The notes beneath the pieces were generated by a model. That model was not told where the DNA came from. It worked only from the letters and a program-made list of their open reading frames with translations, and searched no databases. Below are positions 18,741 through 55,117 of a stretch of 64,000 nucleotides of DNA, piece after piece. How positions within the stretch are numbered: the first letter of the stretch is position 1; every line of letters starts with the position of its first letter. The position numbers were made by a program, and so were the translations under genes. This DNA is from Emiliania huxleyi CCMP1516. Taxonomy: Eukaryota. The DNA is taken from positions 134,347 through 198,346 of the forward strand of contig NW_005201277.1 in the NCBI RefSeq assembly GCF_000372725.1, given 5' to 3'.

Positions 18741-19246
18741 GAATGCGAAGAGTTAATATCTAGCCCGACTGCTCTCGCCGTCGGCCGATCTTTTCGTACT
18801 GCGAAGGGCGCGCGGCAGCCCGGATGATCAGCACCGATGGCGACATTGAGCAGCGGGGCGGGCGGAAGGGCATGTTGCAATTTTGCGACGCAGCAGGTTC
18901 CAACACCACAGCTCACACAGGAAGAGCACTGTATCACTCTTCACTCTGGATGCGACAAGACTAGCCCGAAAATTATCAAGCCCCCGGCTAGGACTACGTA
19001 AAAGCAACACACGCAATAATGGACAGTGCCGCGGGGAAATCGAGTGTAGAGAGAGTATGAACGGGAATCGGGTGACGGGTTTCGAGGACTTCATGCTCTC
19101 GAGGACCGCGCCAACGAAGTAGTGGACAACGGGGCGAGGGATGTGTGCGCCCTCTGCTGAGTTGACTTGTGTTCGCCGCCGCCCAGGCAACGGGAGTTCT
19201 CCTGCTTCTGACAAGGGACAGCGCCAGGCACGCAGCGCGATTTGAA

Positions 19247-20740
19247 ATGGTCTGCGCTCTCGAAATTCTTTTCTTCGCGAAGTCCACCCCGCCGCGCCGC
19301 TCGCGCCGCTCGCGCAGCATCGCCGCCGCCGCCTCCACCGCCGCCACCTATCCAGACACGCCGCCACCCGCCTGTCTCCTCGACCTCCCGACGGAGCTCC
19401 TCGTGCGCGCCCTCTCTCGCTGCAACAACCCCGCCGACATCGCTCGCGTCGCGGCCGTCTCGCTTCTCTTTCACGCCTCGCTTGTGGTGGAGGGCATCCG
19501 CTTGTGGGCGCGAGAGCGCGGCTTCGAGCTGCCGGCGCAGCCAGAGAACGAGGGCTGCGCCGTGCGGTGGCTGTGCTGTTCTGCGTTGCTGCGCGAGTCC
19601 AACCCGCCCGCGAGGGCGGCGGCAGGAATGCAGCACAGCGTTTTCATCGACGGGGAGGGGCGGCTCTCATCGTGCGGCTCAGCGCCGAATCAACGCCACC
19701 TCGGCCAAAGTCCAGGGCCACTTGGCCATGGTGAGGGCGTGACGCTGCTCAACACGCCGACCCTCCTCCCGTCGCCGCTGGGCGGCGAGCGCGCTGTGAG
19801 CGTGTCGGCCGCATCCGAGCACAACCTCGCCCTCGCCGCCGACGGCAGTGTCTGGAGCTGGGGCGTAGGAAGCGAGGGCAAGCTGGGCCACGGCGACGAG
19901 CAGCGCCAGCTGCTGCCCAAGAAGGTCGATACCTTGGCGGGGCAGCGCGTCGTCGCTGTGTCGGCGGGACTGCACCATTGCCTTGCCGTCACCGCCGACG
20001 GCGCCGTCTGGAGCTGGGGCTATGGAAACGACGGCCGTTTGGGCCACGGCGACGAGCAGCGCCAGCCGCTGCCGAAGAAGGTCGAGGCCTTGGTGGGTCA
20101 GCACGTCGTCGCCGTGTCGGGAGGAGTTTTCCACACCCTCGCCATCACTACCGACGGAGCCGTCTGGAGCTGGGGCGGTGGAAGCGATGGCCAGCTTGGC
20201 CACGGCAACCAGCAGCGCCAGCTGCTGCCGAGGAGGGTCGAGACCTTGGCTGGCCAACGCGTTGTCGCCGTGTCGGCTGGAGGCAACCACAGCCTCGTCA
20301 TCACCGCCAGCGGCGCTGTCTGGAGCTGGGGTTGGGGAGGCTATGGCCAGTTGGGCCACGGCGTCGTGCAGTACCAGCTGCTGCCACCAACGAAGGTCGA
20401 GGCCTTTGCTGGGCGGCGTGTCGTCGCCGTATCGGCTGGAGGCGATCACAGCCTCGCCCTCACTGCCGATGGCGCCGTCTGGAGCTGGGGCAATGGACGC
20501 TTTGGCCGGTTGGGCCACGGCGACGAGCGGCACGCTGAGCTGCTGCCGAGCAAGGTCGAGGCTTTGGCTGGGCAGCGCGTTGTCGCCGCGTCGGCTGGAC
20601 TGCACCACAGCCTCGCCCGCACCGCCGACGGCGCCGTCTTCACGTGGGGCAAGGGCGAAGACGGCCGCCTAGGCCACGGAGAGGACCTGTCGAACCAGCT
20701 GCAGCCCAAGAAGATCGAGGTGTGGGCGCCAGGGCAGTGA
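19247..20740 (+). CDS. F-box + RCC1-repeat (UVR8/HERC-like) protein, intronless
   Basis: LLDLPTELLVRAL F-box motif; about 7 repeats of VSAG..HSLA.T.DG.VWSWG....G.LGHG. Confidence 0.88.
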   Translation: MVCALEILFFAKSTPPRRSRRSRSIAAAASTAATYPDTPPPACLLDLPTELLVRALSRCNNPADIARVAAVSLLFHASLVVEGIRLWARERGFELPAQPENEGCAVRWLCCSALLRESNPPARAAAGMQHSVFIDGEGRLSSCGSAPNQRHLGQSPGPLGHGEGVTLLNTPTLLPSPLGGERAVSVSAASEHNLALAADGSVWSWGVGSEGKLGHGDEQRQLLPKKVDTLAGQRVVAVSAGLHHCLAVTADGAVWSWGYGNDGRLGHGDEQRQPLPKKVEALVGQHVVAVSGGVFHTLAITTDGAVWSWGGGSDGQLGHGNQQRQLLPRRVETLAGQRVVAVSAGGNHSLVITASGAVWSWGWGGYGQLGHGVVQYQLLPPTKVEAFAGRRVVAVSAGGDHSLALTADGAVWSWGNGRFGRLGHGDERHAELLPSKVEALAGQRVVAASAGLHHSLARTADGAVFTWGKGEDGRLGHGEDLSNQLQPKKIEVWAPGQ

Positions 20741-28770: not shown

Positions 28771-29964
28771 CCCACCAAATGCCGCCTCAGGGCGCCAGGC
28801 CGCCAGCCACCTCTTACACGCGGCCGGCGCCCTCTCGCGGCAAAAGCCAAAAGGGTCGAGCGAGCGGGCAGAGTCGCGATGTCCCTGCGCACCTGGGTGT
28901 TCGCCGCCTATATGCTCTATCCTGTGCCACGACGGACACGTTTTGACAATCAAAATCTACCTCAAAATTTGCGGCCGCCCCTCGAAATTTGCTGATCAAA
29001 ATTTGCGGTGGCCCGGATCGAAACCTGTACTTTGGCCAACTGCCAAAAAGCACCTTTGGCGGCTATTGCTCAAAACCCTGGGAGAGAAGGCCTACATAGT
29101 ATTACTGCATCCATGCGTCTGGTGCATGAGGGCTGTGGGTCGGGACATTTCACGGTCGGTGGCGCCGATATTGACCTCCGGAAAGCCCTCGCAATCGCTC
29201 GGCACGGGGTCACCGGCCACCGGGAGTGCTCTCGAGCCCTACACCGGAGCATCACGAGCCGGTGCGAGCTTGAAGACCCGAGATAAGTGCGGTCTGGGAC
29301 AGCTCAGGGTTGCTACTGATGGGCTAGGCCAGGAGAGCGACAGAGAAGGCGAGGTGGTGAGCTGGTAATCCATCGCAAGCGACCCGGAGCGCGCAACCGC
29401 GCATCTCGCCGCCGCGGGGCTCCGACTGGTTATCTAGACCTTCCTTCTTCCTCCCTGTTCCTTCCTTTCCCCTTCCCATCTCTTCCCGGCCTCCCGGCCG
29501 GCGCCTGCGGCGCCGTTCTTTTTTTTCCTTTTCTTAAAGAAAGAAAGAAAGAAAACAGACAACCCAAGGGAGGGATGGGAGGACGGCACGCCGCCACCAC
29601 ACAGGGATTTTAAGGAGAGGTGTGTGGTGCGCTAGCCGTCGCCCACCCTAGGGAGTCTGCCTCTTCCTATCTCTCTTCGCAGTCTCTCGCCGCTTCTCGC
29701 TGCATTCCTTTTCTTGCCACCATAGCTGCCTTGATTCCTTCGGACCACTAAACCGCTCTACCTATCCCATCCATTACCGTGCCCCATGTTTCAAGTGCGG
29801 TCGTTTTACCAGGCGCCCAACCGACGGCCGCGCCGCGATTTTTTTTTGCCTGCCCCGTCTTCGCCGTCGCGCGACGACCACGCCGGTGTCAAAACTTCGC
29901 CTTTTCTTTTTTCCGCCCTTCTCTTTTATACCTGGTAAAACGCATGCCAAATTCTTTGTTCACG

Positions 29965-31101
29965 ATGGTGCCCGCCTCGACGCCCTCTGCGCCGCCGCCA
30001 AGCGGCGCCGCGCCGCCTCCCGGCTCCGAGACTTTGGACCTTGGTCGCTGGCAGGTCGTCATCGCCGATGGGCACGCGGTGCTGCCCGAAGGCATGACGC
30101 ACTTGCCGGACGGGGCGTTTCGCGGCCGCACCTCTCTCGTCTCGGTCGCCTTCCCGCGCAGCCTCGCCTCCATCGGCAGCGGCGCCTTCGAGGGCTGCTC
30201 CTCGCTCGTCTCCATCGACCTCCCCGCCAGCCTCGTCTCCATCGGCAACCAGGCCTTTTACAGCTGTTCCTCCTTCATCTCCATAGACCTCCCTGCCAGC
30301 CTCACCTCCATCAGCGACTTCGCCTTCCGCGACTGCTCCGCCCTCTCCTCCGTCACCTTCCCCGCCACCCTCACCTCCATCGGCCGCAACGCCTTCGAGG
30401 GCTGCTCCGCCCTCGTCTCCGCCGCCTTCCCCGCCGGCCTCACCTCCATCGGCATCTGCGCCTTCGCCTTCTGCTCCTCCCTCGTCTCCGTCACCCTCCC
30501 CGCCGGCCTCACCTCCATCGGCATGTACGCCTTCAACAGCTGCGAGGCCCTCTCCTCCGTCACCTTCCCCGCCGGCCTTACATCCATCGACCACGGCGCC
30601 TTATACGGCTGCTCCGCCCTCTCCTCCGTCACCTTCCCCGCTGGCCTCACCTCCATCGGCAACAGCGCCTTCAACGGCTGCGAGGCCCTCGGCTCCGTCA
30701 CCTTCCCCGCCGGCCTCACCTCCATCGGCATCTTCGCCTTCTCCCGCTGCTCCGCCCTCTCCTCCGTCACCTTCACCGCCAGCCTCACCTCCATCGGCGG
30801 CTACGCCTTCTGCGGCTGCTCCTCCCTGACCCGCGTCACCGTGCCAGACACCGCCACGATCGGCGACGAGGCTTTCGAACCTGAGACCACCGTCCTCCGC
30901 CTCCCTCCCAAGAGAATGCGCGACCTGCAGCGCTGGTACGAGGCGGTGGCTTTTGTTCTGGCCTACAAACGCTGCCGCCCCCTCCTCTACGGCTGGCTAG
31001 AGCGGGCCCAGACCAGGCTCGGCTCTTACGGCCCGGACGGCGCGGCGCGCCAGCGCGACCTCGAGGAGTTCGAGGGCGATTTTGGGCTGCTTGTAGAGTG
31101 A
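29965..31101 (+). CDS. BspA-type (LRR_5/TpLRR) leucine-rich repeat protein, intronless
   Basis: About 11-12 repeats of 23 aa, FPAGLTSIGxxAFxxCSALSSVT. Confidence 0.9.
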   Translation: MVPASTPSAPPPSGAAPPPGSETLDLGRWQVVIADGHAVLPEGMTHLPDGAFRGRTSLVSVAFPRSLASIGSGAFEGCSSLVSIDLPASLVSIGNQAFYSCSSFISIDLPASLTSISDFAFRDCSALSSVTFPATLTSIGRNAFEGCSALVSAAFPAGLTSIGICAFAFCSSLVSVTLPAGLTSIGMYAFNSCEALSSVTFPAGLTSIDHGALYGCSALSSVTFPAGLTSIGNSAFNGCEALGSVTFPAGLTSIGIFAFSRCSALSSVTFTASLTSIGGYAFCGCSSLTRVTVPDTATIGDEAFEPETTVLRLPPKRMRDLQRWYEAVAFVLAYKRCRPLLYGWLERAQTRLGSYGPDGAARQRDLEEFEGDFGLLVE

Positions 31102-31245
31102 CAGGCGTGATTGAAACCGCCGGCGCTGCGGCTGGAGCTCCTCCTCCTGTTAGTCCTGAGGAGGAGCGTGTACGAGACCCGCCAGCTGCTGCTTCCTTCA
31201 GCCAGACGGCCGGGCCTGCGCAGCACGACCGCTCCATGCAGACAG

Positions 31246-32694
31246 CAGACTGACATCCCTGCGGCGAGGCTTGTTGCGGGCGCGCGCAGCCAGAGGGCGG
31301 CGCGGGGAGTGGCGGCGTGCGCGTGGTCCCGAGGCGGAGGCGGTGTGCTGCAGGCGAGCGGGAGAAGCTGCTGCAGATGGAGGCGACGCTCGCGCGGTCC
31401 GTCATCGGGCAGGACGAGGCGCTCGCCGTCGTGTCGAACGCGGTGCGAGTCTCGCGCGCGGGGCTGCAGTCGTCCGAGCGCCCGCTCGGCGCGCCCCTGC
31501 TGGTGTGGCCGACCGGCTCGCTCTGCCTGCCGCGAGCCCTCCCGGAGCCTTGCCTGCGCAGGCACCTTCATGCTGGTCGGGCCGACCGGCGTGGGCAAGA
31601 CGCGCCTCTGCAAGGTTCCTCTTCGACTCGGCCGACGCGGTCACGCGGCTCGACATGTCCGAGTTCAGCGAGAAGCACGCCGTCTCTCGCCTCGTCGGCG
31701 CGCCGCCCGGCTACGTCGGGTACGACGAGGGCGGCCAGCTGACCGAGGCGGTGCGGCGGCGGCCGTACTCGGTGCTGCTCCTCGACGAGTTCGAGAAGGC
31801 GCACCGCGAGGTTGCGACGCTGCTGCTGCAGGTCCTCGACGAGGGCCGCCTCACCGACTCGCAGGGCAGACGGTCGACTTCCGCAACACGATCATCATCA
31901 TGACGTCCAATTTGGGCGCAGAGGCAGCTCGCGTCGCTGCCGGAGGGGGCCGCCTCCTCCAAGGCGCGGCCCGAAGTGCTCAAGGCGATCGCGGACGCCT
32001 TCCCGCCCGGGTTCGTCAACCGGCTCGACGAGATTGTGGGCCCCGTAGCCGAGATTGTGAGCCCCGTAGCCGAGGTTGTGGGCCCCGTAGCCGAGACGCG
32101 GCGCGAGGGGGGGCCGAGAGGGTTCGCCGTCGAGTTCCGGCTTCGCCCCCCCTCCCCCCCTCCCCCCGGCGGCCTGCTCACCGGCGGCGCCGCGAGCAGG
32201 TCCTCTTCGAGCGGCTCACCCGCGAGCGCATCGCCGCCATCTGCGCTGTCGAGGTGCAGCTGCGGGAGCGCCTCTCTGCGCGCGGTGTCCGCCTGCGCCT
32301 CTCCCCGGACGCCCTGCTCCGGCTGGCGGAGGCCGGGTACGACCCGGCGTACGGCGCGCGGCCGGTGCGGCGCGCCATCCGCCACCACCTGCTCGACCCG
32401 CTCTCCCGGCTGCTGATCGGAGACCAGGAGGCGCAGGACGGCGCGACCGTCCTCGTCGACACGAAGGACACCGGCGCGGGCGCGGGCGGCGGCGCGGCGC
32501 AGCCCTCCATCGTGCCGCCGCTGCCGGGCGTGCCTTTCGCCACGGGGCTGTTTGGCGCCGGCGGCGCCGCCGCGGCGGTGCCGCCGAGCGACATGGCCGC
32601 CGCTGTGCGCATCCGATTGCTGGCTCCGGGTGCGCCGCTTCCGCCAGAGGACACGGGGGTCGACTGGGACGAGGGGCCGGAGTCGGCAGCGTAG
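31246..32694 (+). pseudogene. clpB: ClpB/Hsp78/Hsp101 C-terminal (NBD2) fragment with frameshifts
   Basis: [81 protein letters not shown]; frame breaks near 31615 and 31870; NBD1 absent. Confidence 0.8.
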
Positions 32695-32771
32695 CCGTAG
32701 GTGTGCCTGATACTTTATGTGTTTCAACTAAAAACATCAAAAAGGCAAAACATCCAACTGCAACTAAATCT

Positions 32772-35700
32772 TCATACAAACGTCGGCATGACCCGGATCT
32801 CGTAATACACCACCTTTGGCTTATTCGGCTTGCCCTCCACAGACTCCTCCTTGTACTCGCGCAGCTGGTTGGCAAGCTCCTCCGTGGAGCTCGCCTTGGC
32901 TCTGGATGGCCCCGGCTTTCCGCCGCTGCCGGACGGGGCGCCCGCTAGCACCGCTTCGGTCGAGAAACGCGAGTTGGTCTTTTGCTTTGTGGCCTTCCAT
33001 GCCGCCTTTTTGTCTTCTGCTGTCACTGCAGGCGAGTCCTTCTGCTCGAGAACCTGCAGCATGGTGCACGGCGGGAAGAGCACCTCCTCCTCGCCGGCAA
33101 ACTGCGAGAGCAGCGAGATGTCGGCGCCGTGGTGGAAGCCCGTGTCTCCCTCGCATGACGGGCGGAGGCTCCACAGCACGTTCGGGCCATTCTCGTCCAT
33201 GTACATCAAAGGCGTCGCGCGGTTGCGGGAAGTGGACATGAAGGCGGTGTCCGTGGCACAGACCATGCCGAGCTCGCCCCGCACCCAAAACGAGTATGGC
33301 AGCTCGCCGCGCACGCCACGGTAGAGAGGCTTTTCCGCCTCCTCTGGCAGCGTGATGGCGGAGAGCTTGCGGATGGCGCGGCAGAGGTGCGCCACAGTGG
33401 CGGTGAAGGTCGCCGCCGGGTGCGTCGCAATGAGCCGGCGGAAGCCGCCGGAATTGTTGCCGATCTCGCGCAGGAAGCGGTTTATGGGCTGGTAGGCTGG
33501 GCCAGTGTACAGCCGCACCGCGAGCACCTCCTCGCGCGTCAGGAAGGCGTTGGCCTCGCTCGGCATCGGCGTGTCCGGGCTTATCTGCTTCAGCTTCTCG
33601 CGCCGCTCTGCAATGCGCGCGTTCATGCGATCGCAAAACTGCACCACGGACATGCCGCCGTTTTTCTCGTCGCGCGTGCCGCGCGTCTTGTCAGCGGCGG
33701 GGACGGCTTCCCCGTTGACGTACTCCCACTCCTCGCGCAGCGTGTACATGACGTCCTTGAAGTCCGTCCAGGAGTAGTCTCGCATAAACTCCTGCTCGAG
33801 CGTGAGCAGCGGCCGCTCGATGATGTCGTCGAGGCCCTTGACAAACGCCTTGCGCGACGACGCGTACTGCAAAGAGACGGGCAGCTCCGCCATCTTGCCG
33901 CCTCCGGAGCCGCTCGAGCCGCCAAGCCGCTTCGGCGCCCTAAAGGTCGCCGTGACGACGAGAAGGTCGACCTTCGGCCTCGTCACGCCGTCTGGCGCGA
34001 GCCAGCTGCCGGCGCGCTTGGTCTCCTTGAGTCGGAACAGCGTGTTGGGCGGGAAGGCCCCCGAAGTCTGCTTCCGGGAAGTCGGCTTCAACGCCCCGCC
34101 GCCCTTCGATGCGGTGGGCGCGATCGTCTTCTTGATGACGATTGGTGCGTGGTCGCCGTGGTCGTCGCTCGCCGCCGCCTCGAAGCAGACAATGGGACCG
34201 CTGACAGGCTTCAAGCCCCCGTCGTCAAAGACCATGAAGCCCTCCTCGCTAAAGCAGTCGAGGCGGTCGTTTGCCTGAGGTGGGGGATGGAGAGCGCTGA
34301 GATGCGGGCTGCGCGGAGATGCTCAGCAGCCCGGGTGTGGGGTGCGGGGCGCGCGCACCATGACCATCACCTCGGAGACGAGCCCTCGGACGCCCGCCTC
34401 GTCGGGCGTGCGGATGCTGCTCCACTGCGAGTAGTCCGACGCCAGCCCAAACTTGCCCTCGAGGTTCTTGTACAGCGACGGCGGAAGCGCAAATTTCTTC
34501 TGCAGGTCGTACTCAGAGCTGAGAGCCTCGGAGAGGGCGTACGTGGAGCAGACGTAGTCCTTCCGGCCCTCCCGCATCGCGGCTGCCAGCGAGCCCCTCA
34601 CCGACTGCAGGGCGTAATAGATCTCCGCGTGCTTCGGATCCATGCCGCTATCGACGCTCTCCTTGATCCCGCGAGCAAACTTTTTGAGCACGCTGTCGAG
34701 GGACTTGTTTTCCCTCACATACTCCTCGGTGCCCTTGTCCTTGTCCGCCAGGTCGTCAGAACGCAAGTACTCCTCGGTCCGCAGCTTCACCCACTCCTCC
34801 CGCCACTTCTCCATGCAATCGTCCGGAGGCGGCCCAACGCAGTCTCGCAGCGAGCGCAAGTAGCCAGTGCGGCTGGTCGGGTTGCCCGGCGGAGTGAGCT
34901 CCGCCACTCGCGTGCGCGCTGCGAGGAGCGAACTCCCCGCCGCAAGCACCTGCTCGCGCGCTTCGCAGAGCTGCACGTCGGAGAGGTACTTCCCCAGAGG
35001 CCAAGTCAGCTTGGGCCGTGGCGCCGTGCCCTCGGGCGGCGGCGGCGGCGTGTTGGCGAAATAGAGCCGCGCCGAAGGGCGGAAGAGGCCGGGGCGGGTG
35101 AGCAGGACGGAGAGGCGGAGCAGGCCGGCCGCGCCGATCGACCAGAGGCGTTCTGGGAACTCTGCCCAGAACCGGTGCTTGCCCCACTTCTCGACGGCCC
35201 TGTCCCAGCCGGCGCCCTTCTGCTTCAGCAGCTCGTCGAGCGTCTTGTCCACCAGCGGCGTGAGCTCCTCCACCGAGATCCACCGCTCCGAGAAGCCGAG
35301 CTGAGCGATGTCCGCAAAGCCGGATATGGCCAGCACCCCGCCGCGTATCGGCACGTGGGCACGCAAGTGCGGCCAGCTGGCGTCGACCACGCGCTCGAGG
35401 CTCTGCCGCGACCGCTCGAGCGACGGCCACTCTCCGGCTGCTGCTGCCGCGTCCGCCTTGAAAGCGTCCTGCACCTCGCCCACGCTGAGCGGCATAGAGA
35501 CGGGAGACACCCCGCCCTCGGCGGTTGACATGCCGCGGATGCCCACCTGCACCGACGAGCCGCCGCCGGCGAGCAGCTGCACGCCGCCGTCATGCCCCGC
35601 GTCCTCAAAGGCCGCATGGAAGAGCGCCTTCGCCGCCGTCCACTCCCACCGCACCTCGTCGAGGCCCTCGACGACGCGGAAGGTGACATTCGGGTGCTCG

Positions 35701-38700
35701 CATCGGCAGAAGCGCGCGAACTGGTCAACCTTGCGCGCGCCCTCGTCGCTGTCCCGAATCTTGCGCACGCCGCCGGTGGCGCCGATGAAGATGCCCCGCT
35801 CCAGGTCGGCGTCGAAGTCGGCGAGCGTATCAGAGAGCAGCTTGAAGAAGAGTTCAAAGGTCTCATCGCCGCCGTCGTTGATGGCGTCGCCCAGTGTCAT
35901 GAAGCTCTTGTCGTCGCGCCGCAGCTTGGCGCTGTGGAGGATCACCGGCATGCCGTCTGGTCCCTGGTCGTACGCGAAAACCTCGGTGTGCCGCGAGCCG
36001 GCGTCGACCACAAAGGCCCTCGGCATCGAGACGCGCGCGGCGAACTTGACGGGAGCGACGCGTCGTGGAGAGGGACGCTCGAAGGAGCGGTGCTTGGAGA
36101 GGGAGACCTTGCCGTGGAGGTCTGGCGACGCGTCAGGGACGCTCACGCTTGCGAGAGAGCCGTCGCGGCTTTTGCCATCGAAGGTGACCGATTTGCGCGG
36201 CGACGGCGACCTTGGGCCCACCGACGGCTGATGTTTGGAGCTACAGGCACCTCCGAAGCAGCCACCAAAGCAGCCACCGCGCCCGATATCGACCACCTCG
36301 ACAGGGCTGTCGTGCTTATTTGCACCCGCTCGCTGCGTCGAGTGGTTCACGGCTGGCTCTGCCTGCTGCTCTGTACCTGCATCGGCCTCCTTCCTCTTCC
36401 GGAAGAGCTCTGCTCCCGGAAGTATCTCGTGCGCACTTGCCATCAGGCGGTCCTGCTCATCGACAGTCTCTCCCTTCAACCGCAGCGTCAACTCAACCAG
36501 TTGCGCGACGCGCTCATCGGAGTGGACGCCAAGCGGCAGCTTGAGTGCAATGTCGCCCGCGTACACTGTCTTGATGCTGGTGCTGGAGCTGAGATCGGCG
36601 GCAAGGAGCATGCTGTCCTCCTGGCTAAGGCTCTGGTCGGGCAAGTCAACCTCCCCGGACCGAAACCCGCAGAGCGTTTGCAGAGTCTGGTGCTGCTTGA
36701 AGACAGCCACGAGCTGCTGAGCCACCACGAGGGGAATGCTGTTGCCGAGGAGGTTGACCGTGATCAGCGAGCGGCTGGCTGCGAGGCCCTTGGCAATCGC
36801 AAGCACGCCAGTGGCGTCGACCAGTTTTAGTTTGGTCACGACAACGTCCTTCCTTGCAACCTCAACCTTCATCGACCGGCCGTCGAGGTCGTTGCCGTTG
36901 AGCTCGGTGGCCGCGTCCGCGGCGTGGGCGGAGGCGAACTGGAGGTAGCCGGAGCCCTCGATATTGCCAGAGTCCGCGTGCGTGAGCCACTCGATCTTCG
37001 TGATCTCGCCGCACTTGGCAAAAACCTCCTTGATCTGCTCATCGGTGACCGACCACGGGAGGTTGCCCAGGAAGACGCGGCCGCTGACTACTTTTTTCTC
37101 AGTGAAGTCCTTCGCCTCAAACACAATCAAATTGCGGTCCTGGTAGACCACCTCGGCCCCGACCTCCTTCGACTCACCCGAGAACAGCATGCCGATGCCC
37201 TTGCACAGCTGCTCTGCGCCAGCCGCCACGGCCGCAAGCGCCGCTTCGCGCGTGGCGAAGCGAACGATCGCAGGAGCTATGTGCAGCTCGCAAGTCTCGA
37301 TCCGCCCAAAGCTGCCAAGCGTCGCGAGGATCGCCTGCTCTTCGATGCCTCTCTTCAAGTCGAAGAGGCAGACGGAGCGCTCACCCTTAGTTGCGTCGAC
37401 GTAGTCGGTCACCTGGCAAATGCCACTGGAGGAGAGGTCGAGGGTGGTCAGCGTCTGGCTGAGCTTCAGAACGCCGGCGAGCAGGGTTGCAGCCGCCGGG
37501 CCAATCGGGTTGGACTTGACGACGAGGGACTGAGCACCCGCAGGCAAATCAAAGGCATCGCACTTGAGGGCTCCCAGCTTGCTCGCGCTGCTGCTGAGGA
37601 GCGACGCGCCAATGTTTCGCATGCCCGAATCGGTGATCGAGTTGGAGCTCACGTCGAGGTAGGACAAAGTAGAGTTCACGGCGAGAGCCCTGGCGAATGC
37701 GGCGGCGCCGTTGGGGCCAAGCTCATTGCCGCTGAGGTCGAGAGTGGCCAGCATCTTGTTGCACTTGAGCGCCTCGGCGAGAGCAGCGGCGCCCTCGTCG
37801 GCGAGCTCGTTGCCGCCGAGGCGTAGGTTAAGCAGCGAACGGTTGAAACGAAGATCGGCGGCGATGAGGATGCCGTCGGCCGGTCTGAGCTCCGACCCTG
37901 AGAGATCGGCCTCCGACTGGCCGGGCTGAAACCCGCAGAGCGTTTGCAGAGTCTGGTGCTGCTCGAAGAGGACGGTAAGCTTCTCGGCCGCCGCAGTGCC
38001 GATTTTATTCTCAAGCAGATTGACGCCGGCCGCCACATTGCCTTTCAATAGCAACGCGATCACCATGCCCGAGGCGACGCCAAAGCCCCTGTTAGAGAGG
38101 TCGAGAATCTCCGCGAGGGTCGGCGCGTCATTGCGGAGCTGCAACAGGTTGAAGTTCGAATCGTCGAGCTTCAAGTCTGTCAGACTCGTCTTAGTCTTGA
38201 TCGCGAGCGCCTCGCAGATGGCAGCGGCACCGTTAGGACCGATGTCTATGTAGCGCAAGTCGAGGCTGGTCAAGGTGCAGTTGCTCGCCAGCGCCTTGGC
38301 GATTGCAACGACACCGGAGTCGCTGATGTCGTTCTCGGAGAGGGTCAGAGTGGCCAACGTCTCATTGGCGGCGAGGGCCTTGGCGATCGAAGTGGCCCCC
38401 TCTGTGCTGATCTTGTTGTTGCGGAGGTCAATCACCTCCAGCGACGTGTTGACCTCGAGGGCGTTTGCTATCGCTGAAGCGCCGCGGTCTCCCAGTTCGT
38501 TTCCGGAGAGGGACAGGCTGGTCAGGGTCGGGTTGTCCTCAAGCAACGACGCGATCACGATGCCGGAGGCGACGCCGAGGCCCTTGCGGGAAAGGTCGAG
38601 GGACGTCACCGGCTCAATGCCACGTAGCTGCGACAGATTGAGCTTGAACCCGTCGAGGCTCAACTCGGATAGCACCGTGTTGATCTTGAGCACCGCGAGC

Positions 38701-41484
38701 GACTTCAGCGCGCCAGCAATCCGTTCGCCCTCGCGCGGGCCTAGCCGAGCATCTTCTACATCCAACGTCGCCAGCCGTGAAGCTGAGGCAAAGAGCAGCG
38801 CCGCTAGCCCGGAGCCGCGTCCCTTGGCCTTCGCGCCCAAGTTTAGCTCCTCCGACTCCAACAAGCGCGGCTCCGCCTCGCACAACGCCTTGAGCTGCTG
38901 CGGCCAGTCCTCAACGCAACTCGACGCAAGCACCGCGCTGTCAATCGCGCCGCCGAGCGCGGCATCGTCGTTGTAGAACGTGGCCTCGCGTGACGAAACT
39001 GAGTCTAGCCAGGCCTGGAGGAAGCGCGCAACGTCCTCGCGCGTCGTGCCCGTCGACTGAAAGAAGCCGTCCCACCCCTGCTCCACGCTCGTCTGGTTGG
39101 TCATCTTGTTGGTCAGCCCAAGCTGAAGCTGCTCGCTCATGTCCTGCACCACCTTACGCCGCTTCGACACGACCTGGTCCAGCGTGAGCGCGAGGAGGTT
39201 AAGACTGAGCCGCGCGTCGACGACGAGGGTGCCGCCCTCCACGCGCGTGCCGAGCGCCTCGATGCCGGTGAGCGGCGGCAGCAGCACCTCCTTCTCGTGC
39301 GGGTACTGTGACAGCCACGCGATGTCTGCGCCGCGGTCGACCATGCCCATCTGCATCTCGAAGATGGTCGAAGCGGCGCCCTGCGCGTACTGCATAGCCT
39401 GCGACTCGGTGGTGGTCGTTGAGGCGAAGGCGAACTCGACGCCGCCGCACGTGCCGAAAGAATTCGGCTCCCAGAAGGACGGCGGGAGCTTGGCGGACGA
39501 GAATCCGCGGTACACCTTGGTCGCCTTGGTGAGCTTGCTCAGCTTGATCACGCACGAGTTGATGCCGTGGATGGTCGTCGGGAAGTCGTTGTCGCCGTTG
39601 AGATCCTTTTGCTTCTGCTCGAGGCGAGGGTTGCCGCTCTTGGCGCGGAGCACCGCGTTGTAGAGCTCGTAGCATGGCCCCGTGTACAGCCGGCCGGCGA
39701 CGACCTCCTCCTCGACGAGGGCCGTGTGGCCGTGCGTCTTGAGCTCCTCGTTCTTGGTCTGCATCATCTCGAGCAGCTCCTCGTACGGCACGGGCTTGCG
39801 GCACAGCGACGGGCGCTCCTCGCGAAAGCCCTCGCGCTCCGCATAGACGCGAGCCGAGTTGGGCTCCGCGACAAACTCCCACTCGCCGGCCGGCGTGGTG
39901 GTCATGCCGTTGGAGGAGGTGAAGGCGACGTGCGACCGGTCGCGCAAGCAGTGCTCCTCCTGCATTCCCTTGAGCAGCGACTTGTTGACCATGCGCGGCG
40001 GCCCGATGAGTCCCTCGAGGCCTGCACGCGCACAAGGGCGGGTGGAGCGAGACGAGAGGTACAGGGCACAAGCACATGAGCGCTGCACCTCCGTAGAAGA
40101 GATCGACGTTGCCGTAGCTCATCTCAAAGGAAGCCTCCTGCTTGAACTTGTCGTTGAGCTCCGCGCCCGTCGCCGCCTTCTGGCCGCGCAGCTCCTCGAG
40201 GGCCTTCCAGATGGGCGTCGCCAGCCCGCCCAACTGCGCTGCCTGCAGCATGCCGTCGAGCCTCTCGCGCGACAGCGAGCACAGGTATGCAAAGGGGTCG
40301 TCGCCGGACGGGTCCTGCAGCGCCTCGCCGACGATGTCAAGGAGGTTGAGGGAGCGCAGCCAGCCGAGCACGCTCCAACCCGAGTCGTGCGCCGCACCGC
40401 TTCCCTCGAGCCACTCAAAGAGCTCGAGCCGCCGTGCCGCCCGCTCGATGAGACTGCGGTGGCCTCCGTACAGCTCACGCCACGCCTGCGACGCCCTGCC
40501 TTGCTCGTCCACGTGCAGCCACTTGACCGCCTGCGCATCGTCGCCCGAGGCGAGACGCAGCTTGTTTCCGAGCTCCTTTGAGCAATGGAAGTGGACGGCA
40601 GTCGTCTCGGTCCAGGCGTTGTCGGTGTTTCGCGGGTCGTCGGTGTAGCCGCGGTAGACTTGGCGGCCGCCGGCGAAGAGCTCCTTCATCTGCTTCTCGA
40701 AGAGCTCCTTCGCCTCGCCCTCGAGGTTGCCCGCCTCCTCCTTAAACTCGCGCTTGACCGCATCTGAGAGCGACTCCCCCTCGTCCACCATGCCGCCTGG
40801 CAGCGCCCACTGCTTGGTGTCGCACCGCTGGATCACAATCACCTGCAGCCGCCCGGCGTCGTCGTACCGTGTGACGATTGGGTCGGCGGCGTGGTTTGGC
40901 CCCCACTTGCCGAGCAGCCCGCGGCCGCACAGGCCGGTGCGCCCCATCGGGTTGAGCGGTCGGTCGCCGTCGAAGAGCAGCGCCTTGCCCACCGCCTCAG
41001 TCTGTCCATCAAAGGCATACGTCTTGCGGTCGGCCAGCTTGGCGCGGCTGACACGAGGCGGGTCGGCCCACCTGTCGCCGGTGTGCAGCTCGCGGCTATT
41101 GGCGAATACGGCATCGTCGGTCCACTCAGTCGGCGAGTAGCCAGCGAAAGGCACCTCCCACCGCACCTCGCCGTCCTCCACCGCCTGCCGCTGCGGGTAG
41201 GAGCTGTTCTCCTGGCTTCGCGACTTGACGTGCGGTGACTGCGTTGCGTCGAGCTCTGGTGCTCGCTGCGAATAGGCCTCGGGCGGTGCATCGGCGCGGA
41301 GCACAGGAGCCGAAGCGGTGCCAGCCCCGAGCGGATGCGGCGCCGGCTTCGACACGATCTCCTCGGCTCTCTCGCTGCTCTGAAGGCCCTTAGCGTTCGC
41401 ACTTGAAATGTGTGATGCACTGACTTCGGACTCTATCGCCGCACTCCGCTGTGGCCTAGCTAACTTCGACCCGGAGGAGCCCAT
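32772..41484 (-). CDS. Giant multidomain protein (~2,853 aa): myristoylation motif - NUDT9-like - ART - LRR (with 2 RRM) - GDA1/CD39-like NTPDase - degenerate ART - ART; exons 41484-40089, 40021-34359, 34274-32772
   Basis: Two in-phase GT-AG introns (40022-40088, 34275-34358) join three long ORFs; motifs NPMGRTG..GRGLLGKWGPNH, GGMVDEGE..REFKEEAG, VYRG/STT/EKEVLL, DAGSRHT/GATGGVR/GGSSVQ/WPLG, LYRG/STS/EEEVLF. Confidence 0.85.
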
Positions 41485-41584
41485 GAGAGCGGCGTGAGGA
41501 GCCCAAGGAACGCCCGCGACGTCTCATGTTATTGCGGTCGACCAGCCTGCAATTTTTCTTACTTTTTGGACGACCCAGAAGGGG

Positions 41585-41745
41585 AATCTCGGGTGATCTC
41601 GGGTAATATCGAACTCGTGTATTCGGGTTGCCTGCCCCGACACATCATTAGTGATCTCGGGTAGTCTCGGGTAATCGCGGGTTATCTCGGGTTATCTCGG
41701 GTAACCTCGGGTCATGTCGGGTCATCTCGGGTCATATTGGATCTC
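41585..41745. repeat. 10-bp (ATCTCGGGTN)n microsatellite-like array
   Basis: Direct reading of the sequence. Confidence 0.8.
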
Positions 41746-41841
41746 GCGTAGTCGGTACACACACACTCACATACACACACACGTTTGTACCGCGTCCTGT
41801 GCCCCCGAGTTCATTTAATAAATTAAACACACACACACACT

Positions 41842-41899
<58 letters not shown>

Positions 41900-42720
41900 A
41901 AACAAACAACGCCCACAACCCCGACTTCGCCCTCGACGAGGGAGGTGCGTCCAAGTACCCCACCATCGCCGCAGCCATCGCCACCTACGAGTACGCCCTC
42001 TCGGACTGGAAGGAGGTGTGCGAGAAGCGCGCCGCCCGCGACAAAACCAAGTACCACACCGTCCGCGGCGGCTACCTGACTGAGTTCTACCCCAAGAGCG
42101 TCCCGCTCCCCGAGCCCGAGTCCCTTCCAGCTACCGACGCGATTCTCAATGGCACTTGCAAATCCACGTACCCGCGGCCGCGGGCGCTCGCTGCCATCAA
42201 GAATCACAAGGACTGGTTCGCGCACCAGGAGCTCGTCAAGGCGCGGGACGTGCACGTCAAGAACAACCCGTCCCTCGGAGACAGCGCCGTCAACAACCGC
42301 GAAGCCTCGCGCTTCGTCTCCGCCTCAACGCCTTTCGCCGGCAAAGCCCTCGATGTCCGTGTCGACGGCACGTACGCCACCGCCCTCTCCTCCGACGCCC
42401 TCCAGGACGAGCTCCAGCGGAAGCTCGGCCTTTGGCTCTCCGTGGCGCTTCCCACCCTTCGGGTCGCGCTCGAGCGGGGCATGCCAGTCGATTTCTTTGG
42501 CGACTACCTTTACAACAAGGCCCACCACCGGCGGCCCCACGACGGCGTCCTCGCCGCCTGGGCGGACGCGATGCGCGCCCCGGCCAACGCGCCGGTCGTG
42601 CACGGTGACAAGGAGAAACCAGAGCTCACCCGGCAGTACAACGAGGGGTACAAGGTCGACCTCGCGGAACCCCACGCTGGCCCGGGAGGATGCGATGAGG
42701 TGAACGGCTCTTCTGTGTGC
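41900..42720 (+). mobile_element. Fragment resembling the post-RT C-terminal region of a CRE/R2-like (RLE) non-LTR element, abutting a (CA)n tract
   Basis: SRFVSAS..FAGKALD, LSSDALQDELQRKLGL, DFFGD..HHRRPHD, VDLAE spacing recalls CRE-clade C-termini; RT not present. Confidence 0.4.
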
Positions 42721-43325
42721 CGGCACAGAGCTCCGTGCAAGCCTTCCAGCGTGATAGGAACGAGTGTATCGCTTTGACGGATCGACCGTGCTTGTTATCC
42801 ACATCGATGTGACGCACACAGTGACACTTCAGACGACACACATTCTCCCACCCGCCGGGACGCAAAACGCTCTCGACGAGAGCCACAAGAAGGCGGCCAC
42901 ACAGCAAGCCGCTCGGTCGATCACGTTGCTCGCTCGATGCCGGCGAGCGCATGGCGCACGCCTTGGACGGTGGCGAAGCCAAAAACACCGGCAGTGGCCG
43001 TCCGCTGGCGTGAGCGGCGGCGGTCGAGACCTCACCCTTCGCGCCGACGACCCAACCTCACGCGGAACAACCCAACCCTTGCACAACCCTACCCAACACG
43101 AAACAACCCAACACAAAGCACGATTCTCAAGTTGCGCCCTCATGGTCTAAACTGGTTCGCTTGGTACCCTCATAATGTGGTCGCTCGCTGGTCCTCTCGG
43201 CTCGGCCACGCGTCGGACCAGCTCACACGAGCTCCAGACAGCCACCGGTCGCCACTGCACCAGTACCATACCCCGCAAAAAGTTGGAACCCTGCCCGCAT
43301 ACAACACACACACACACGTGTATAT

Positions 43326-45237: not shown

Positions 45238-45665
45238 CGGATGAAGATCCAGGCCGCGTGCTTACTGTGCTCGTCGTGAAAAAATACTATATATTTTGGA
45301 CGCTAAGTACACGGCGTCAAAAAAGTTGTCACCCTTGTCACCCGAGGTCTGCGGCGGCGTGCGCGTGGTCTCAGGTCCGGGGGCGCGTCTTGGGACTCCC
45401 GCTCGTGTGACCCGGGTCCCTGCGGATTGCGAGTCTGCGAGGCGCATGCGGCGGATACAGGTCAGCGCCCCCCCCCCCCCACACCCACCCACCCACCACC
45501 ACTGCCTCTGCAGGACTCCAGCTGGTGGCACAGGGTGTCAGGCCACGGGGCTTCTTCACCACCCCTGCCCCCCCCCCCTCCCCTCCCACACGCGACACGG
45601 TACTTTGCGCCCCCGCCGGCCCGAGACGTGCCAAAAGGTGCCGCGGCTTGGCTCAGTAGACCAGC

Positions 45666-47008
45666 CTAGAAGCTGGAAGTGAGCGGGATGCCGCGCTCCT
45701 TGCACACGGCCACCAGCTCTGGCTGCTTCTCATTGTCCACGACCAGCTCCTGCACGCGAGGGGAGGTGCGATGGGCATTGGGCGGGGGAGGGGCGTGTGG
45801 CGAGGGGGGGCGTCTCGCGCCTTCAAGCTCGGGGCGGCCCCCTCCTTGAGGGCGGCGGCCAGCGCCTTGCAGCCCTCGTCGCCAATCTTGTTTTGGAAGA
45901 GAGCGAGCTCCTCGAGCCGCGGCGCTGCCCCCTCCTTGAGGGCGGCGGCCAGCGCCTTGCAGCCCTCATCGCCAATCTCGTTCTGCAAGAGATACAGCTT
46001 CTCGAGCCGCGGCGCTGCCCCGCTCGCGAGGACCTCCGCCAGCTGCGCCGCTTCCGCGTCGCCCCAGCCGAGTTCGATGTAGAACAGCTCGGTCGCCTTG
46101 CCAAACTGCTCCTCGAAGGCGCCCTCGTACAGCCCCTTCACCAGCGGCTTGTCGTCCTTGCCGTTGGTGAAGCTCTTCTTCTCCAGCTCCGCCGCGAACG
46201 CAGACGGCAGCAGCGGGGGGCGCCGGCCGCCGCTCTTGACGCAGTCGTCTCGGAGGCTGTCGTAGTCGTACTCCACGCCGGCGCGCATCTTGCCGAGGTC
46301 GAGCGAGAGGGTCCAGTTCTTGGTCAGGCTCGCCCAGCTGTTCTCGACGAAGCACCAGCCGCGGTCAAAGTACTTGGCCACGTTGGTGCCCTCGGCCTGG
46401 TCCTCCGCCTTGTGGCCGTCTGGGAAGGAGGTCAGCCGCAGCACGGTCGTTTTAGGGTGGGAGTAGAGCGTGCCGAGGCAGCCCAGCCCCTGCTTGAAGA
46501 GCGCGTTCTCCTCCTCGGTGCGCATGACGTCGTTGGCCGGGTCGGGGTGCTGGTGCAGCGAGCCGAAGTCCCAAAAGACGCCGAGCCGCGATATGTACGG
46601 ATCGCTGAGCAGAGCCTTGAGCGCCCTTGCGACGCGGGACAGGTTGGCTCCGATCGGGTCGGGGTGGTCCTTGGTCAGCCATGGGTAGGAGAGCGCGGCG
46701 ATGGGAAGGTGAGCCCCGTGATACTCAAGGTAGGCGAACGCCTCGACGAGGTCGGCGAGGGAGAGAAAGGCCTCTTTGGGCAGCGCCTGGCGATGGGTGA
46801 GGACGCCGCCCGCCTCGGCGTGGACGATGATCCAGTGCGCGTCAAGGAGGGCGACGGCGCCGCTCGCGAGGACCGGCTCCAGGTCGCCGCCGCCGAGCCT
46901 GCGCCACAGCTCCAGCTTCTTCTCGTACCGCTCCAGCTTCTCCTCGAAGGTCCTCGGACGCACCCACGAGTCGTAGGTCCGGCCCGGCTTGCTTTTTCCG
47001 CAGCCCAT
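45666..47008 (-). CDS. Myristoylated HET-like domain + RI-like LRR protein (GC-AG intron 45750-45820)
   Basis: MGCGKSK; ALSYPW...HPDP, VFWDFGSLHQ, YFDRGWCFVE, FTNG; LEKLYL.QNEIGDEGCKALA repeats. Confidence 0.8.
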
Positions 47009-47046
47009 GGCTGAACCGATTTGCTTTGCAAAAAAGCGCGCCGCCC

Positions 47047-47215
47047 CAGGGTTCGGACTTTCTGCGGGGTATGGTATGGTTGCCCATACCCCCCCGCATG
47101 TTGACAGACCTGCTCGGGTATGGTATGGCTAGTCTTGGGCGGTCAGGACCATACCCTCCCACCCCTTTGGGCCGTGATGGTACCATACCATACCCCGGAA
47201 AAAGTTGGAACCCAG
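47047..47215. mobile_element. Small MITE with hAT-like CAGGG termini; related single ends at ~22190-22230 and ~43261-43293
   Basis: Imperfect inverted repeat CAGGGTTC..ACTTT.T.CGGGGTATGGTATGGT. Confidence 0.6.
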
Positions 47216-52805: not shown

Positions 52806-54973
52806 TCAATGCGGCCGCCCAAGCTCACAGGTGGCCCCCTTGGGTGGCGGCGGCGGGCACGTGCCATTGCCGCACGCCAGGCAGCCGCAGCGATCGACGG
52901 CCGCCCACGCTCGCGCGTCCATGTAGTGGATTGCCAGGCTGGTCGCATCGCACCACCGCTGCAGTCCACCGCGGCCGCTGATGTCGTGGAAGCGCTCGTC
53001 GTCGAAATGTCGGATGTCGAGCGCCGCTGTCCACAGTCCGGCGGTGGCGTCGGCGGGCCAGATACGACGAAATGGCAGGCGGCTGTGCGCCACCCATTCG
53101 GCCACATCACGAGAGTAGACCCACCCGAGGCCCGACGGGTAGGGCAGGAAGAGAAAGAGGCCCTCGGCGAAGCTCGGGCGGAGCGATTTGGGCAGCATGC
53201 AGAGCCACAACGACTCGTTGCGCTTCAGCCCGCCCGCACGCAGCCTCTGCACGTCGTCATTACGGCACCCGCGCACGAACCGACCCCAGATGAGGTGCGA
53301 TGTCGGGATCGGCTCGGCGCGGATCGCGCGGAGCAGCGCGTGCACCCGCACGTACGTGTCGTCGTGGATGCGCATGATATAGCCCGCACGCGGGTGCGCC
53401 TCAATCGCCCAGCGGAGCAGTGCGAGCAGCTTGCTGGCCTCGGGGTCCGAACGGCTGCGCGCGGGCACCGCGCCCCCCGGGACAAAGCCGTCGGAGTCGC
53501 TACAGTTGGCCACCAGTATGTCGCCGTGACGCCGCATCTCGGCCCTCACGGAGCGGCGCAGGAGCGCGCTTGCGGCGGAAGAGCCGCCACCACCGCTGCC
53601 GCCGCCGCCGCCGCCGCCGTGGCCGCCGCCGCCGCCACCACCACCATTGCCACCCATGCCCAGCGCATCTGCACCGAGGACGAACGCGAGCGCAACGCGC
53701 TTTGCTAGGTGGTACGACGGGTAGGCGAATGTGAGTGTGTGCAGACCGTGGCGGATCGCGTCGCGGCGCTCCACGTGCGCTGCGCGTCCAAGCACGCCGA
53801 TGACGAGCTCCACGCGAGATGTCGCGGCGGTGGTGTGGGAGGCAGTGGGCGCAGTGGGCAGGGGCTTGGTGCCGTCGTCGTCGTTAGCGGGTGCAATGCG
53901 GCGTGTCGCGGGCCCCGCAGCCCGCAGCGGTGACATGGCCGCGCGACGCATCGGCCACTCCGCCCAAACCCTGCCGCGCAGCGAGCGGTTCGACGCCGCC
54001 TCGGCGGCACGGCACGCGACGCGCGGCAACTCGCATGGCGCCATTGCTGCATAGCGGGCATGCTCGACGGCGTGCGGCGCGCCGGCGTCGACTGCGCGAC
54101 CGCCGGTGTTCCCAGGGAAGCTCCAGGCCGAGCCGTGCAGCAACTTGGCGCCCGAAGTGAGCGAGGCGGCGGACCCATCGTAAAGCGAACCGCACGGCAG
54201 CACCAGCTGCGCGCGCTTCGGCAGAAACCGCAGCGCCGACAACTGAATATTCCACGTGCACGGCAGCTTTGCCACCATGGCTGGATGGCGCGCGAACGCC
54301 GCATTGAACCAGTCCTGGTCGCCAAACTCGAGGCGCGCGGATGGGCCAGCTGCGCCGAGCGCGCGCCACACCGCGTGGCTACTCACGTTGAGCCAATGCT
54401 GGCTGCGCGCGCGGGCGAGGTCCATCAGGACGAGGCCGCCATTGTACGGTGCCGCGGCGTACGGCCTCAACCAATACTGCGGCTTCCACTTGCGCAGACG
54501 GATTGCGTCGAGCGCCATGCCGAAGGCGATTGCTGACGAGGCGGCGCGCGCAGTCTCAAAGACGGCCCATAGTTCCGCCACGTCGGCTCGCCACAGAACG
54601 TCGGCGTCGACGGCGACAAGCGAGATCACGTCCGCTGGCAGCACGTGCGGCAGCGCCACCTTGACAAGGGTTGAAAAGTCGAGAGCGCTGCGCTGAAGTA
54701 GGGCTGAAGCTGAGGCCGGCATCAGCTGCGCCACCGTCTGGAAGACCATTGCGCGCGTGTGAAGCTTGCAGCGCAGCCACGCGCCACCGCATGCGCTCGC
54801 GAGAAACTCTGCAAGAGTGGTATCGCTGGCCTCATCCGCCATCACGTGGATTTGAAGAGGCGACGGCCAGCTGTAGTGGTGGAGCAGCGACTTTATCATG
54901 ACGATTGCCTGCGCGGCGGAGGCGTTGCCGCAGCCAGCGGTCCAAACGTGGAGCGGCGTTCCTCTCGCGTGAT
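52806..54973 (-). CDS. Bifunctional glycosyltransferase: GT8 (LARGE/GXYLT-like) + GT31 (beta-1,3-GalT-like); 5' end lost in the gap
   Basis: MIKSLL, VDADVL, YNGGLVLMDL, GDQDWFN, LPCTWNIQL, LLHG; then ERRDAIR, AEMRRHGDIL, IHDDTYV, YPSGLGWVYSRD. Confidence 0.85.
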
Positions 54974-55073
54974 NNNNNNNNNNNNNNNNNNNNNNNNNNN
55001 NNNNNNNNNNNNNNNNNNNNNNNNNNNNNNNNNNNNNNNNNNNNNNNNNNNNNNNNNNNNNNNNNNNNNNNNN
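54974..55073. other. Assembly gap (N run)
   Basis: N bases. Confidence 1.
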
Positions 55074-55117
55074 TATCCCCTGACTTACCTTCCACGAACC
55101 TTCCGCGAGCCCTCTAG

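Follow-up and report, generated by a model that had tools for sequence, protein, structure and literature searches.

A spliced gene of Emiliania huxleyi that joins predicted NUDT9, ADP-ribosyltransferase and apyrase-like domains: a likely gene fusion

Introduction

ADP-ribosyltransferases (ARTs) with an R-S-E triad, ADP-ribose hydrolases of the NUDT9 type and apyrase-like phosphohydrolases of the ASKHA fold are the described systems closest to the gene considered here, which lies on the minus strand (41484 to 32772) of a 64,000-nucleotide stretch of Emiliania huxleyi CCMP1516 DNA (contig NW_005201277.1, positions 134,347 to 198,346), hereafter the window, and whose predicted product carries domains of all three kinds. 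Among ARTs, the ExE motif is linked to arginine as the ADP-ribose acceptor, and HopU1 modifies an arginine of an RRM, an RNA-binding domain. The enzymatic chains of binary toxins (C2I, Ia and VIP2) carry a dead N-terminal ART copy ahead of the active ART, while plant NLRs may carry integrated decoy domains. ASKHA enzymes of the NTPDase/Ppx clade cleave phosphoanhydrides, not phosphomonoesters, and NUDT9 is poor on protein-linked ADP-ribose. The canonical Nudix box consensus is REUXEE, and NUDT9-type enzymes are described as acting on free ADP-ribose (both in excerpts of PMC6461439).

The E. huxleyi gene is real, transcribed and spliced, and its chain is likely a fusion of a NUDT9-ART-LRR gene (LRR, leucine-rich repeat) with a once free-standing ASKHA-pseudoART-ART gene.

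Gene Model and Transcript Support

Joining of open reading frames (ORFs) gives a minus-strand chain of three exons and 2,853 amino acids (aa) with a single terminal stop; its initial methionine, in MGSSGSK, is encoded by the first in-frame ATG downstream of the preceding stop. GC content at third codon positions runs from 0.73 to 0.92 along the chain.

41484-40089 (-): exon 1, aa 1-465, with the MGSSGSK start and predicted N-myristoylation (joined ORF model)
40088-40022 (-): intron 1, 67 nt, GT-AG, skipped by RNA contigs of runs X2 and X8
40021-34359 (-): exon 2, aa 466-2353 (joined ORF model)
34358-34275 (-): intron 2, 84 nt, GT-AG, with an in-frame stop inside, skipped by RNA contigs of X2, X3 and X8
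34274-32772 (-): exon 3, aa 2354-2853 and the stop (joined ORF model)

Part of the stretch was present in 13 RNA runs, and half or more of its words in six; five runs (X1, X2, X3, X7 and X8) were compared with the locus, and splicing was scored on the contigs of four (X1, X2, X3 and X8) over 31000-43000. Intron 1 is spliced out in contigs of two of the four and intron 2 in contigs of three, while X1 contigs skip neither within that interval. RNA contigs also extend 5' of the ATG, to 41528 in X2 and 41505 in X3. Differences in contig depth between the two halves of the gene are not taken as a ranking of expression. An initial annotation, made from the letters alone, had proposed three ORFs joined by two in-phase introns; length, GT-AG borders, start and splicing stand, but intron 1 is no multiple of three, and it splits a codon whose frame is restored on splicing.

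Mosaic Origin of the Chain

The likely fusion point lies within exon 2.

36234..36257 (-): fusion point, where FGGACSSK corresponds to MGGACCSK, with which the 3' gene begins in its free-standing form (L001, P0165)

A metagenome scan that reduced 71 candidates to a single locus, L001, recovered a contig 96.3% identical to the window over 36254-32163 and running into the same neighboring gene. In L001 the ASKHA-pseudoART-ART2 unit opens with its own ATG, as MGGACCSK, where the window reads FGGACSSK; the contig holds only 41 bases upstream of this ATG, all open in frame, which leaves room for a longer L001 form. The counterpart of intron 2 in L001 is 80 nt long. The same MGGACCSK-type start occurs in P0165, which has 48 cluster members. 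Between the window and L001, pN/pS (non-synonymous against synonymous change) is 0.38 overall (49 synonymous and 58 non-synonymous changes), 0.19 in ART2 and 0.35 in the ASKHA domain.

A second relative, P0001, carries the order NUDT9-ART1-ASKHA-pseudoART-ART2 in one ORF that reads on across the two intron positions and lacks LRR and RRM; it is represented by two near-identical records on contigs of about 6.4 kb and is known here from protein, not DNA. Its identity to the window is 87% over the first 795 aligned aa and 55-63% over the 3' part, and this unequal divergence of the halves suggests separate histories, by an independent fusion or a recombinant. Contigs cross the fusion point (36257) in four of the five runs (X2, X3, X7 and X8), which carry four study codes, although a contig that bridges two genes does not by itself prove a single transcript. 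In the long form of X8, three large indels keep the frame (net 87, 198 and 201 nt).

An origin of the fusion by a small, ATG-removing deletion was considered and rejected, since the 44 upstream bases of L001 are no more similar to the window than 541 of 3,000 randomly drawn windows. Directly upstream of the gene's ATG, 41550-43000 holds microsatellites (ACCCGAGAT-type and TG) and, beyond them, a high-copy repeat, whose summed depth in X1 is 1,600-5,400 against about 10 in the gene; the repeat is a possible recombination substrate.

N-Terminus and NUDT9 Domain

The predicted N-terminus matches the MG-x-x-x-S myristoylation consensus as a pattern, and no clear transmembrane helix is present in the chain, the highest 19-residue hydropathy being 1.7. 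Of the initial description as membrane-anchored there is thus left a predicted anchoring by the myristoylation motif, and by that motif only.

40399..41232 (-): NUDT9-type ADP-ribose pyrophosphatase domain (PDB matches NUDT9 and TRPM2 NUDT9-H; Pfam NUDIX)
40752-40735 (-): Nudix box REFKEE, aa 245-250, fitting the REUXEE consensus

A Pfam scan of the three exons gives NUDIX at 56.7 bits, and a PDB search returns human NUDT9 (1q33) at E 1e-52 over query residues 4-281 and TRPM2 NUDT9-H at E 8e-55. The intact Nudix box in a NUDT9-type domain, as first annotated, is therefore confirmed, and the domain is predicted to be a Mg-dependent ADP-ribose hydrolase.

The Two ART Domains

The chain contains two ARTs with complete triads.

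39183..39722 (-): ART1, R-S-E (R637, S666, E708-x-E710) (Pfam ART; HopU1; triad conservation)
33039..33860 (-): pre-ART2 and ART2, R-S-E (R2672, S2700, E2748-x-E2750) (Pfam ART; ART2-type alignment; tree)

Both exceed the PF01129 (Pfam ART) cut-off of 22.3 bits, ART1 with 26.0 and ART2 with 40.4, and their triads lie in register and are conserved, which bears out the earlier reading of two ARTs with R, STT or STS, and ExE. Across 123 domains from 120 relatives, R is kept in 123, S in 122, the Glu two residues before the catalytic one in 122 and the catalytic Glu in 121; among 40 ART2-type domains the figures are 40 for R, 39 for S and 38 for both Glu, with two gaps. N-terminal to ART1 lies a helical and pre-ART region common to the algal ART family. 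The two domains are 33% identical and belong to separate subfamilies, each with a Shimodaira-Hasegawa-like approximate likelihood ratio (SH-aLRT) of 100 in a tree built by a quick method on 70 rows, among them 51 of the 120 proteins of the ART1 search and 14 ART2-type domains. Among solved structures, HopU1 comes closest to each of them (E 2e-5 for ART1 and 3.5e-6 for ART2). From their motifs, ART1 and ART2 are predicted to be arginine-type transferases, with NADase activity as the alternative. None of 20 pattern matches in viral contigs was confirmed as an ART1 relative, in a comparison able to detect close relatives only.

Between the ASKHA domain and ART2, across intron 2, lies a stretch that had been called degenerate and ART-like.

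33939..34877 (-): probable pseudo-ART, a degenerate tandem copy of pre-ART and ART2 (HHalign)

It lacks R, STS and ExE, yet HHalign aligns it end to end with pre-ART2 and ART2 over 218 columns (probability 49.8, E 1.7e-4, score 37.9), against a best score of 24.2 for 60 shuffles and 14.4 for the reversed sequence. The comparison with ART1-type domains is not significant (score 20.1, exceeded by two of 40 shuffles; probability 2-3). The label thus has moderate support, as homology to the ART2 module. The pseudo-ART module is conserved, with 53 matches, and a long match of the ART2 type is also present in 40 of 56 proteins examined. The ART2 search gave no sequence match to the C2I, Ia or VIP2 structures.

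The Apyrase-like ASKHA Domain

34992..36020 (-): ASKHA phosphohydrolase, NTPDase/Ppx-like (profile, structure model, conservation of apyrase conserved regions, ACRs)

The window's domain keeps ACR1 D1805, ACR2 T1881, ACR3 E1921 and ACR5 W2139, but the ACR4 Asp is replaced by A1950, and an additional invariant Glu stands at E1925. Direct phmmer, Pfam and PDB searches with it gave no match, and it fails the PF01150 cut-off. Among 1.84 billion representatives 40 relatives were found, and two of the 34 scanned exceed the PF01150 (GDA1_CD39) cut-off. A profile of 30 sequences favors NTPDase: its matches to NTPDase1/2, Legionella NTPDase and plant apyrases have E values from 2e-12 to 7e-8, that to Ppx only 0.4. 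The structure model (predicted local distance difference test, pLDDT, 93.8) matches NTPDase and Ppx/GppA equally, with Z 19.2-18.7 and a root-mean-square deviation of 3.8-4.5 Å over 272-314 residues; Ppx ranks first in Foldseek and NTPDase first in VIA, with Z within 1.

Counted over the ungapped rows of a 29-row family alignment, ACR1 D is kept in 23 of 23, ACR2 T in 24 of 24, ACR3 E in 26 of 26 and ACR5 W in 27 of 27, whereas the ACR4 Asp column holds S in 21, A in five and D in none of 26; the Glu four residues past the catalytic Glu is invariant (26/26). According to a passage of PMC12489842, the two DXG aspartates are a general feature of NTPDase complexes that are productive. Since the ACR4 Asp is absent from all 26 relatives covering that column, the family is an undescribed NTPDase/Ppx-like branch with an altered metal site, and since the fold lies equally near Ppx/GppA, NTP/NDP hydrolysis is not assured. 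The initial comparison with apyrases accordingly survives at the level of the fold and of ACR1, 2, 3 and 5, and not as a statement on substrates. Judged from motifs and model, the domain probably works like an ASKHA phosphoanhydrolase outside GDA1/CD39 proper. Free-standing relatives that begin with Met have an MG start in nine of 37 cases.

The LRR Region and Its RRM Inserts

36528..38780 (-): ribonuclease-inhibitor-like LRR region, a variable cassette, absent in P0001
37184..37389 (-): RRM1 insert, missing from other alleles without loss of frame (net 201 nt); nearly identical copies occur elsewhere between unrelated flanks
36853..37093 (-): RRM2 insert, missing from other alleles without loss of frame (net 210 or 198 nt); its RNP1 has decayed in comparison with the donor

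Ribonuclease-inhibitor-like LRRs and an RRM had been noted at the outset, and both are recovered by Pfam, with seven LRR_6 stretches and an RRM_1 match of 62.5 bits; a second, weaker RRM scores 18.6, under the cut-off of 20.7. Neither NB-ARC nor NACHT was found in the Pfam scans of the three exons.

Runs X1, X2 and X3 contain a form from which the two RRMs are absent with the frame kept (net 210 and 201 nt), and X8 contains a similar one (net 198 and 201 nt); in X2 there are, in addition, contigs identical to the window over the two inserts. Each RRM is matched at about 92-94% by other transcripts, whose flanks are unrelated and begin at the insert borders or no more than about 10 bases from them. 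By these comparisons both RRMs are recent, allele-specific inserts, evidently copied from other genes, in the case of RRM2 from another expressed gene. Relative to this donor, 10 sites of RRM2 are listed (of 12-15), eight of them non-synonymous and clustered at RNP1, whose first position has changed from K to E, a pattern that fits a decoy or neutral decay equally. P0001 joins NUDT9, ART, ASKHA, pseudoART and ART without LRR or RRM, and the RRMs are specific to alleles; LRR gating is therefore no part of the conserved core, and the designation of the chain as LRR-gated is too narrow.

In X1 the RRM1 segment (37184-37386) shows about 10-fold contig depth, and its flanks in other contigs resemble, over 30 flanking letters only, the RGW-motif family to which the 45653-47128 neighbor belongs; the same RRM may be inserted in this multi-copy second family.

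Family and Architecture Survey

A search with the ART1 module retrieved 146 proteins of 1,037-3,301 aa among 2,991 candidates, and the domain counts that follow rest on the 120 of them that are listed. Their partners include ankyrin, EF-hand, LRR, HEAT, WD40, TPR, channel, PARP and Nudix segments, and their named sources are Prymnesium, Chrysochromulina, Emiliania, Prorocentrum, Chaetoceros and Guillardia, the nearest named relatives being mostly haptophyte proteins. The ASKHA part is shared with P0001 only, and NUDT9 with P0001 and P0022 only. Nudix and ART occur together in three of the 120, on at least two tree branches; Nudix with ASKHA in three of 34 scanned; and a HAD phosphatase with pseudoART in one of 35 scanned. 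These recurrent Nudix, HAD and ASKHA combinations indicate that ART and nucleotide-phosphohydrolase domains have been paired repeatedly. The exact architecture is rare and, as far as domain scans tell, shuffling is general in the algal ART family.

In P0223, the position that ASKHA has here, ahead of the pseudo-ART module, is taken by a HAD-family phosphatase. A different Nudix type is joined to the ASKHA family or to ART and ankyrin in P0130, P0133, P0146 and P0101 (the last not NUDT9-like), which is an independent pairing of the same activities.

The literature search, over titles and the starts of abstracts, returned no description of this architecture. Works of the Aravind group on the natural history of ARTs reportedly may cover algal expansions, so that the expansion itself may already be in print. 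The passages of PMC9503650 examined contain nothing on this ART family.

Proposed Function and Alternative Readings

We put at roughly even odds the reading that one spliced fused gene encodes a lipid-anchored, NAD-consuming ADP-ribosylation switch used in defense or acute stress. From the observed gene structure, splicing, motifs, free-standing 3' allele, LRR-less relative and RRM inserts, we infer the following course. The myristoylated N-terminus would hold the chain on a membrane, where, on a trigger, the two ExE-type ARTs would move ADP-ribose from NAD to target arginines and release some of it free. NUDT9 would split the free ADP-ribose into AMP and ribose-5-phosphate, thereby limiting a signal or making the loss of NAD one-way, and the ASKHA domain might take phosphate off some nucleotide or polyphosphate-like substrate. 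The dead ART copy may serve as an adaptor or brake for ART2, and the LRR/RRM block as an exchangeable target- or trigger-binding cassette rather than an obligatory gate.

The link to defense comes from a haptophyte-virus time course, whose cluster 2 groups genes that rise at once and transiently, 0.5 h after the virus is added (excerpt of PMC12489294). In its Table S2, with 2,174 regulated genes, all four PF01129 rows fall in cluster 2 (548 genes), with log2 fold changes of 1.8-3.4 and a hypergeometric p of 0.004 by our own count among the regulated genes, a value that ignores unregulated ART genes. The main text of PMC12489294 discusses TIR proteins and has no match to "ADP-ribos". A defense role is thus likely but inferred: the immune or cell-death role first proposed gains only indirect support from these four genes, which are other ART genes, while the partner domains of the family fit ordinary signaling equally well. 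More doubtful is the broader proposal of a polymorphic, host-encoded algal ADP-ribosylation immune system, in which myristoylated ARTC/NUDT9/Asp-less NTPDase-Ppx cassettes, recombined with repeat scaffolds that capture RNA-binding decoys, would respond to contact with a giant virus within minutes, by modifying targets and depleting NAD and adenine nucleotides.

Several points, besides the restriction of that p value to regulated genes, weigh against the switch. The four induced genes share with this one a PF01129 annotation but may be neither this gene nor members of its family, and the 0.5 h response may reflect the inoculum rather than infection. No contig among the RNA runs compared covers the full gene; contigs of the 5' half overlap by just 11-30 nt, and the long 3' contigs represent a form about 3% divergent from the window. 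Lacking the metal-binding ACR4 Asp, the ASKHA domain could be a binder. The degenerate stretch is probably a dead tandem duplicate of the ART2 module, with moderate support; the AlphaFold model of pseudoART-ART2 (P0161, 12 rows) reached pLDDT 40 and was not used, and pN/pS against L001 rises to 0.71 in the C-terminal pseudo-ART (aa 2291-2470) and 0.87 in pre-ART2, each on few changes. Finally, EF-hand, Dpy-30 and ligand-gated-channel segments among the family partners fit ordinary signaling.

This last point leads to the alternative that fares best, possible though clearly behind the switch, namely a routine signaling writer with clean-up, in which arginine ADP-ribosylation of host proteins under Ca2+ or kinase control would be followed by removal of the nucleotide by-products, with no special link to defense. 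EF-hands, ankyrins, Dpy-30 or channel segments do occur in many family members, the contigs of the 3' module are deep in RNA runs from several studies (a depth that cannot rank expression), and ARTs derived from toxins have repeatedly been taken up by eukaryotes to modify proteins in ordinary ways (part of PMC3417536). However, extreme shuffling, allele-specific inserts and a relic N-terminus would indicate a fast turnover more typical of conflict genes, and the regulated ART genes, four of four, lie in the early virus-response cluster.

It is unlikely, to a greater degree, that the long form is a tolerated chimera of a recombination-prone locus, the short myristoylated ASKHA-pseudoART-ART gene and the NUDT9-ART-LRR gene being the working units to whose function the join adds nothing. 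The free-standing 3' allele at the same locus, high-depth 3' contigs that stop at 36539 (X7) and 36186 (X8), the high-copy repeat just upstream, the non-synonymous share of the X8 differences listed across the linker (11 of 15) and that of the listed RRM2 changes (8 of 10, about the level of neutral decay) all agree with it; the fused frame is nevertheless kept in X8, a second organism code, despite three indels, all of them in frame, and the same enzyme order in P0001, with its unequally diverged halves, would suggest an independent fusion or recombinant.

Very improbable is a write-and-trim machine, in which ART would add ADP-ribose to a protein, NUDT9 cut it to phosphoribose and ASKHA strip the phosphate to leave a mark beyond ordinary erasers: all three predicted activities stand in a single chain and ART/Nudix/phosphatase pairings recur, but NUDT9 acts poorly on the protein-linked form and the ASKHA clade spares phosphomonoesters. 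Nudix enzymes can turn protein ADP-ribose into phosphoribose in vitro (excerpt of PMC10789625), against which stands the description of NUDT9-type enzymes on free ADP-ribose (excerpt of PMC6461439).

Very little is known of how bloom-forming algae resist viruses. The locus indicates that algae possess a large and shuffled family of toxin-type ARTs with their motifs intact, and that there is an apyrase/Ppx-like enzyme family, so far undescribed, whose metal site is altered. Gene fusion and domain capture are, moreover, clearly seen here to segregate between alleles, and the natural variants of the locus (short, LRR-less, RRM-less and full) allow the contribution of every module to be tested directly.

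Neighboring Genes

Some 4 kb upstream of the gene, and likewise on the minus strand, lies an ORF (45653-47128) with an MGCGKSK start, predicted to be myristoylated, and LRR_6 repeats; its N-terminal domain has no Pfam match at E 10. Its SYPWL, WDF and RGWC motifs recall what we take to be HET/TIR-like algal proteins. The remaining genes noted are as follows.

5165-6379 (-): ankyrin protein
14504-18385 (+): reverse transcriptase ORF
19166-20740 (+): F-box-like/RCC1 protein
29752-31101 (+): BspA-type LRR_5 protein
31111-32694 (+): ClpB-like AAA_2 gene fragment, convergent with the chain gene and spliced in RNA contigs
52806-55352 (-): GT8 and galactosyltransferase fusion

BspA-LRR genes are among those up-regulated in virus-resistant cells (Table 1 of PMC12489294). 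The ClpB-like fragment shows small indels against the window in all four runs, e.g., a 1-base insertion at 31867, and the copy in the window may be frameshifted or contain errors.

Comparison with Known Systems

The chain combines known enzyme kinds with one undescribed ASKHA branch, in an architecture not found in the searches made. With the TRPM2 chanzyme and NUDT9 (6co7, 8sr7, 1q33) it shares a NUDT9-type domain with a canonical Nudix box within a larger ADP-ribose-linked protein; the algal domain is, however, N-terminal and joined to ADP-ribose writers rather than to a channel, with no clear transmembrane segment. The R-S-E fold with ExE is that of the Arg-specific ARTCs (HopU1, 3u0j; SpvB, 2gwm; vertebrate ecto-ARTC1-5), from which the algal protein differs in being host-encoded, apparently cytosolic and multi-domain, with two ART subfamilies per chain; vertebrate ARTCs, unlike it, are anchored by glycosylphosphatidylinositol or secreted.

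The degenerate ART-like duplicate immediately upstream of an active ExE ART recalls C2I, Ia and VIP2, although the algal duplicate includes the pre-ART region and the algal protein is no delivered toxin. Plant NLRs with integrated decoys are resembled in the recent, allele-specific capture of an RNA-binding domain with decayed RNP1 in an LRR region, whereas here NB-ARC and NACHT are lacking, the enzyme outputs lie in cis and the RRM decay is also compatible with neutrality. Finally, the two-lobe ASKHA fold with ACR1, 2, 3 and 5 is that of the GDA1/CD39 NTPDases and of Ppx/GppA (5u7p, 4br9, 3zx0, 6pbz, 1t6d), from both of which the algal branch departs in the change of the ACR4 DXG Asp to S or A, in a new invariant Glu and in an identity of 12-17%, standing at a tie between the two families.

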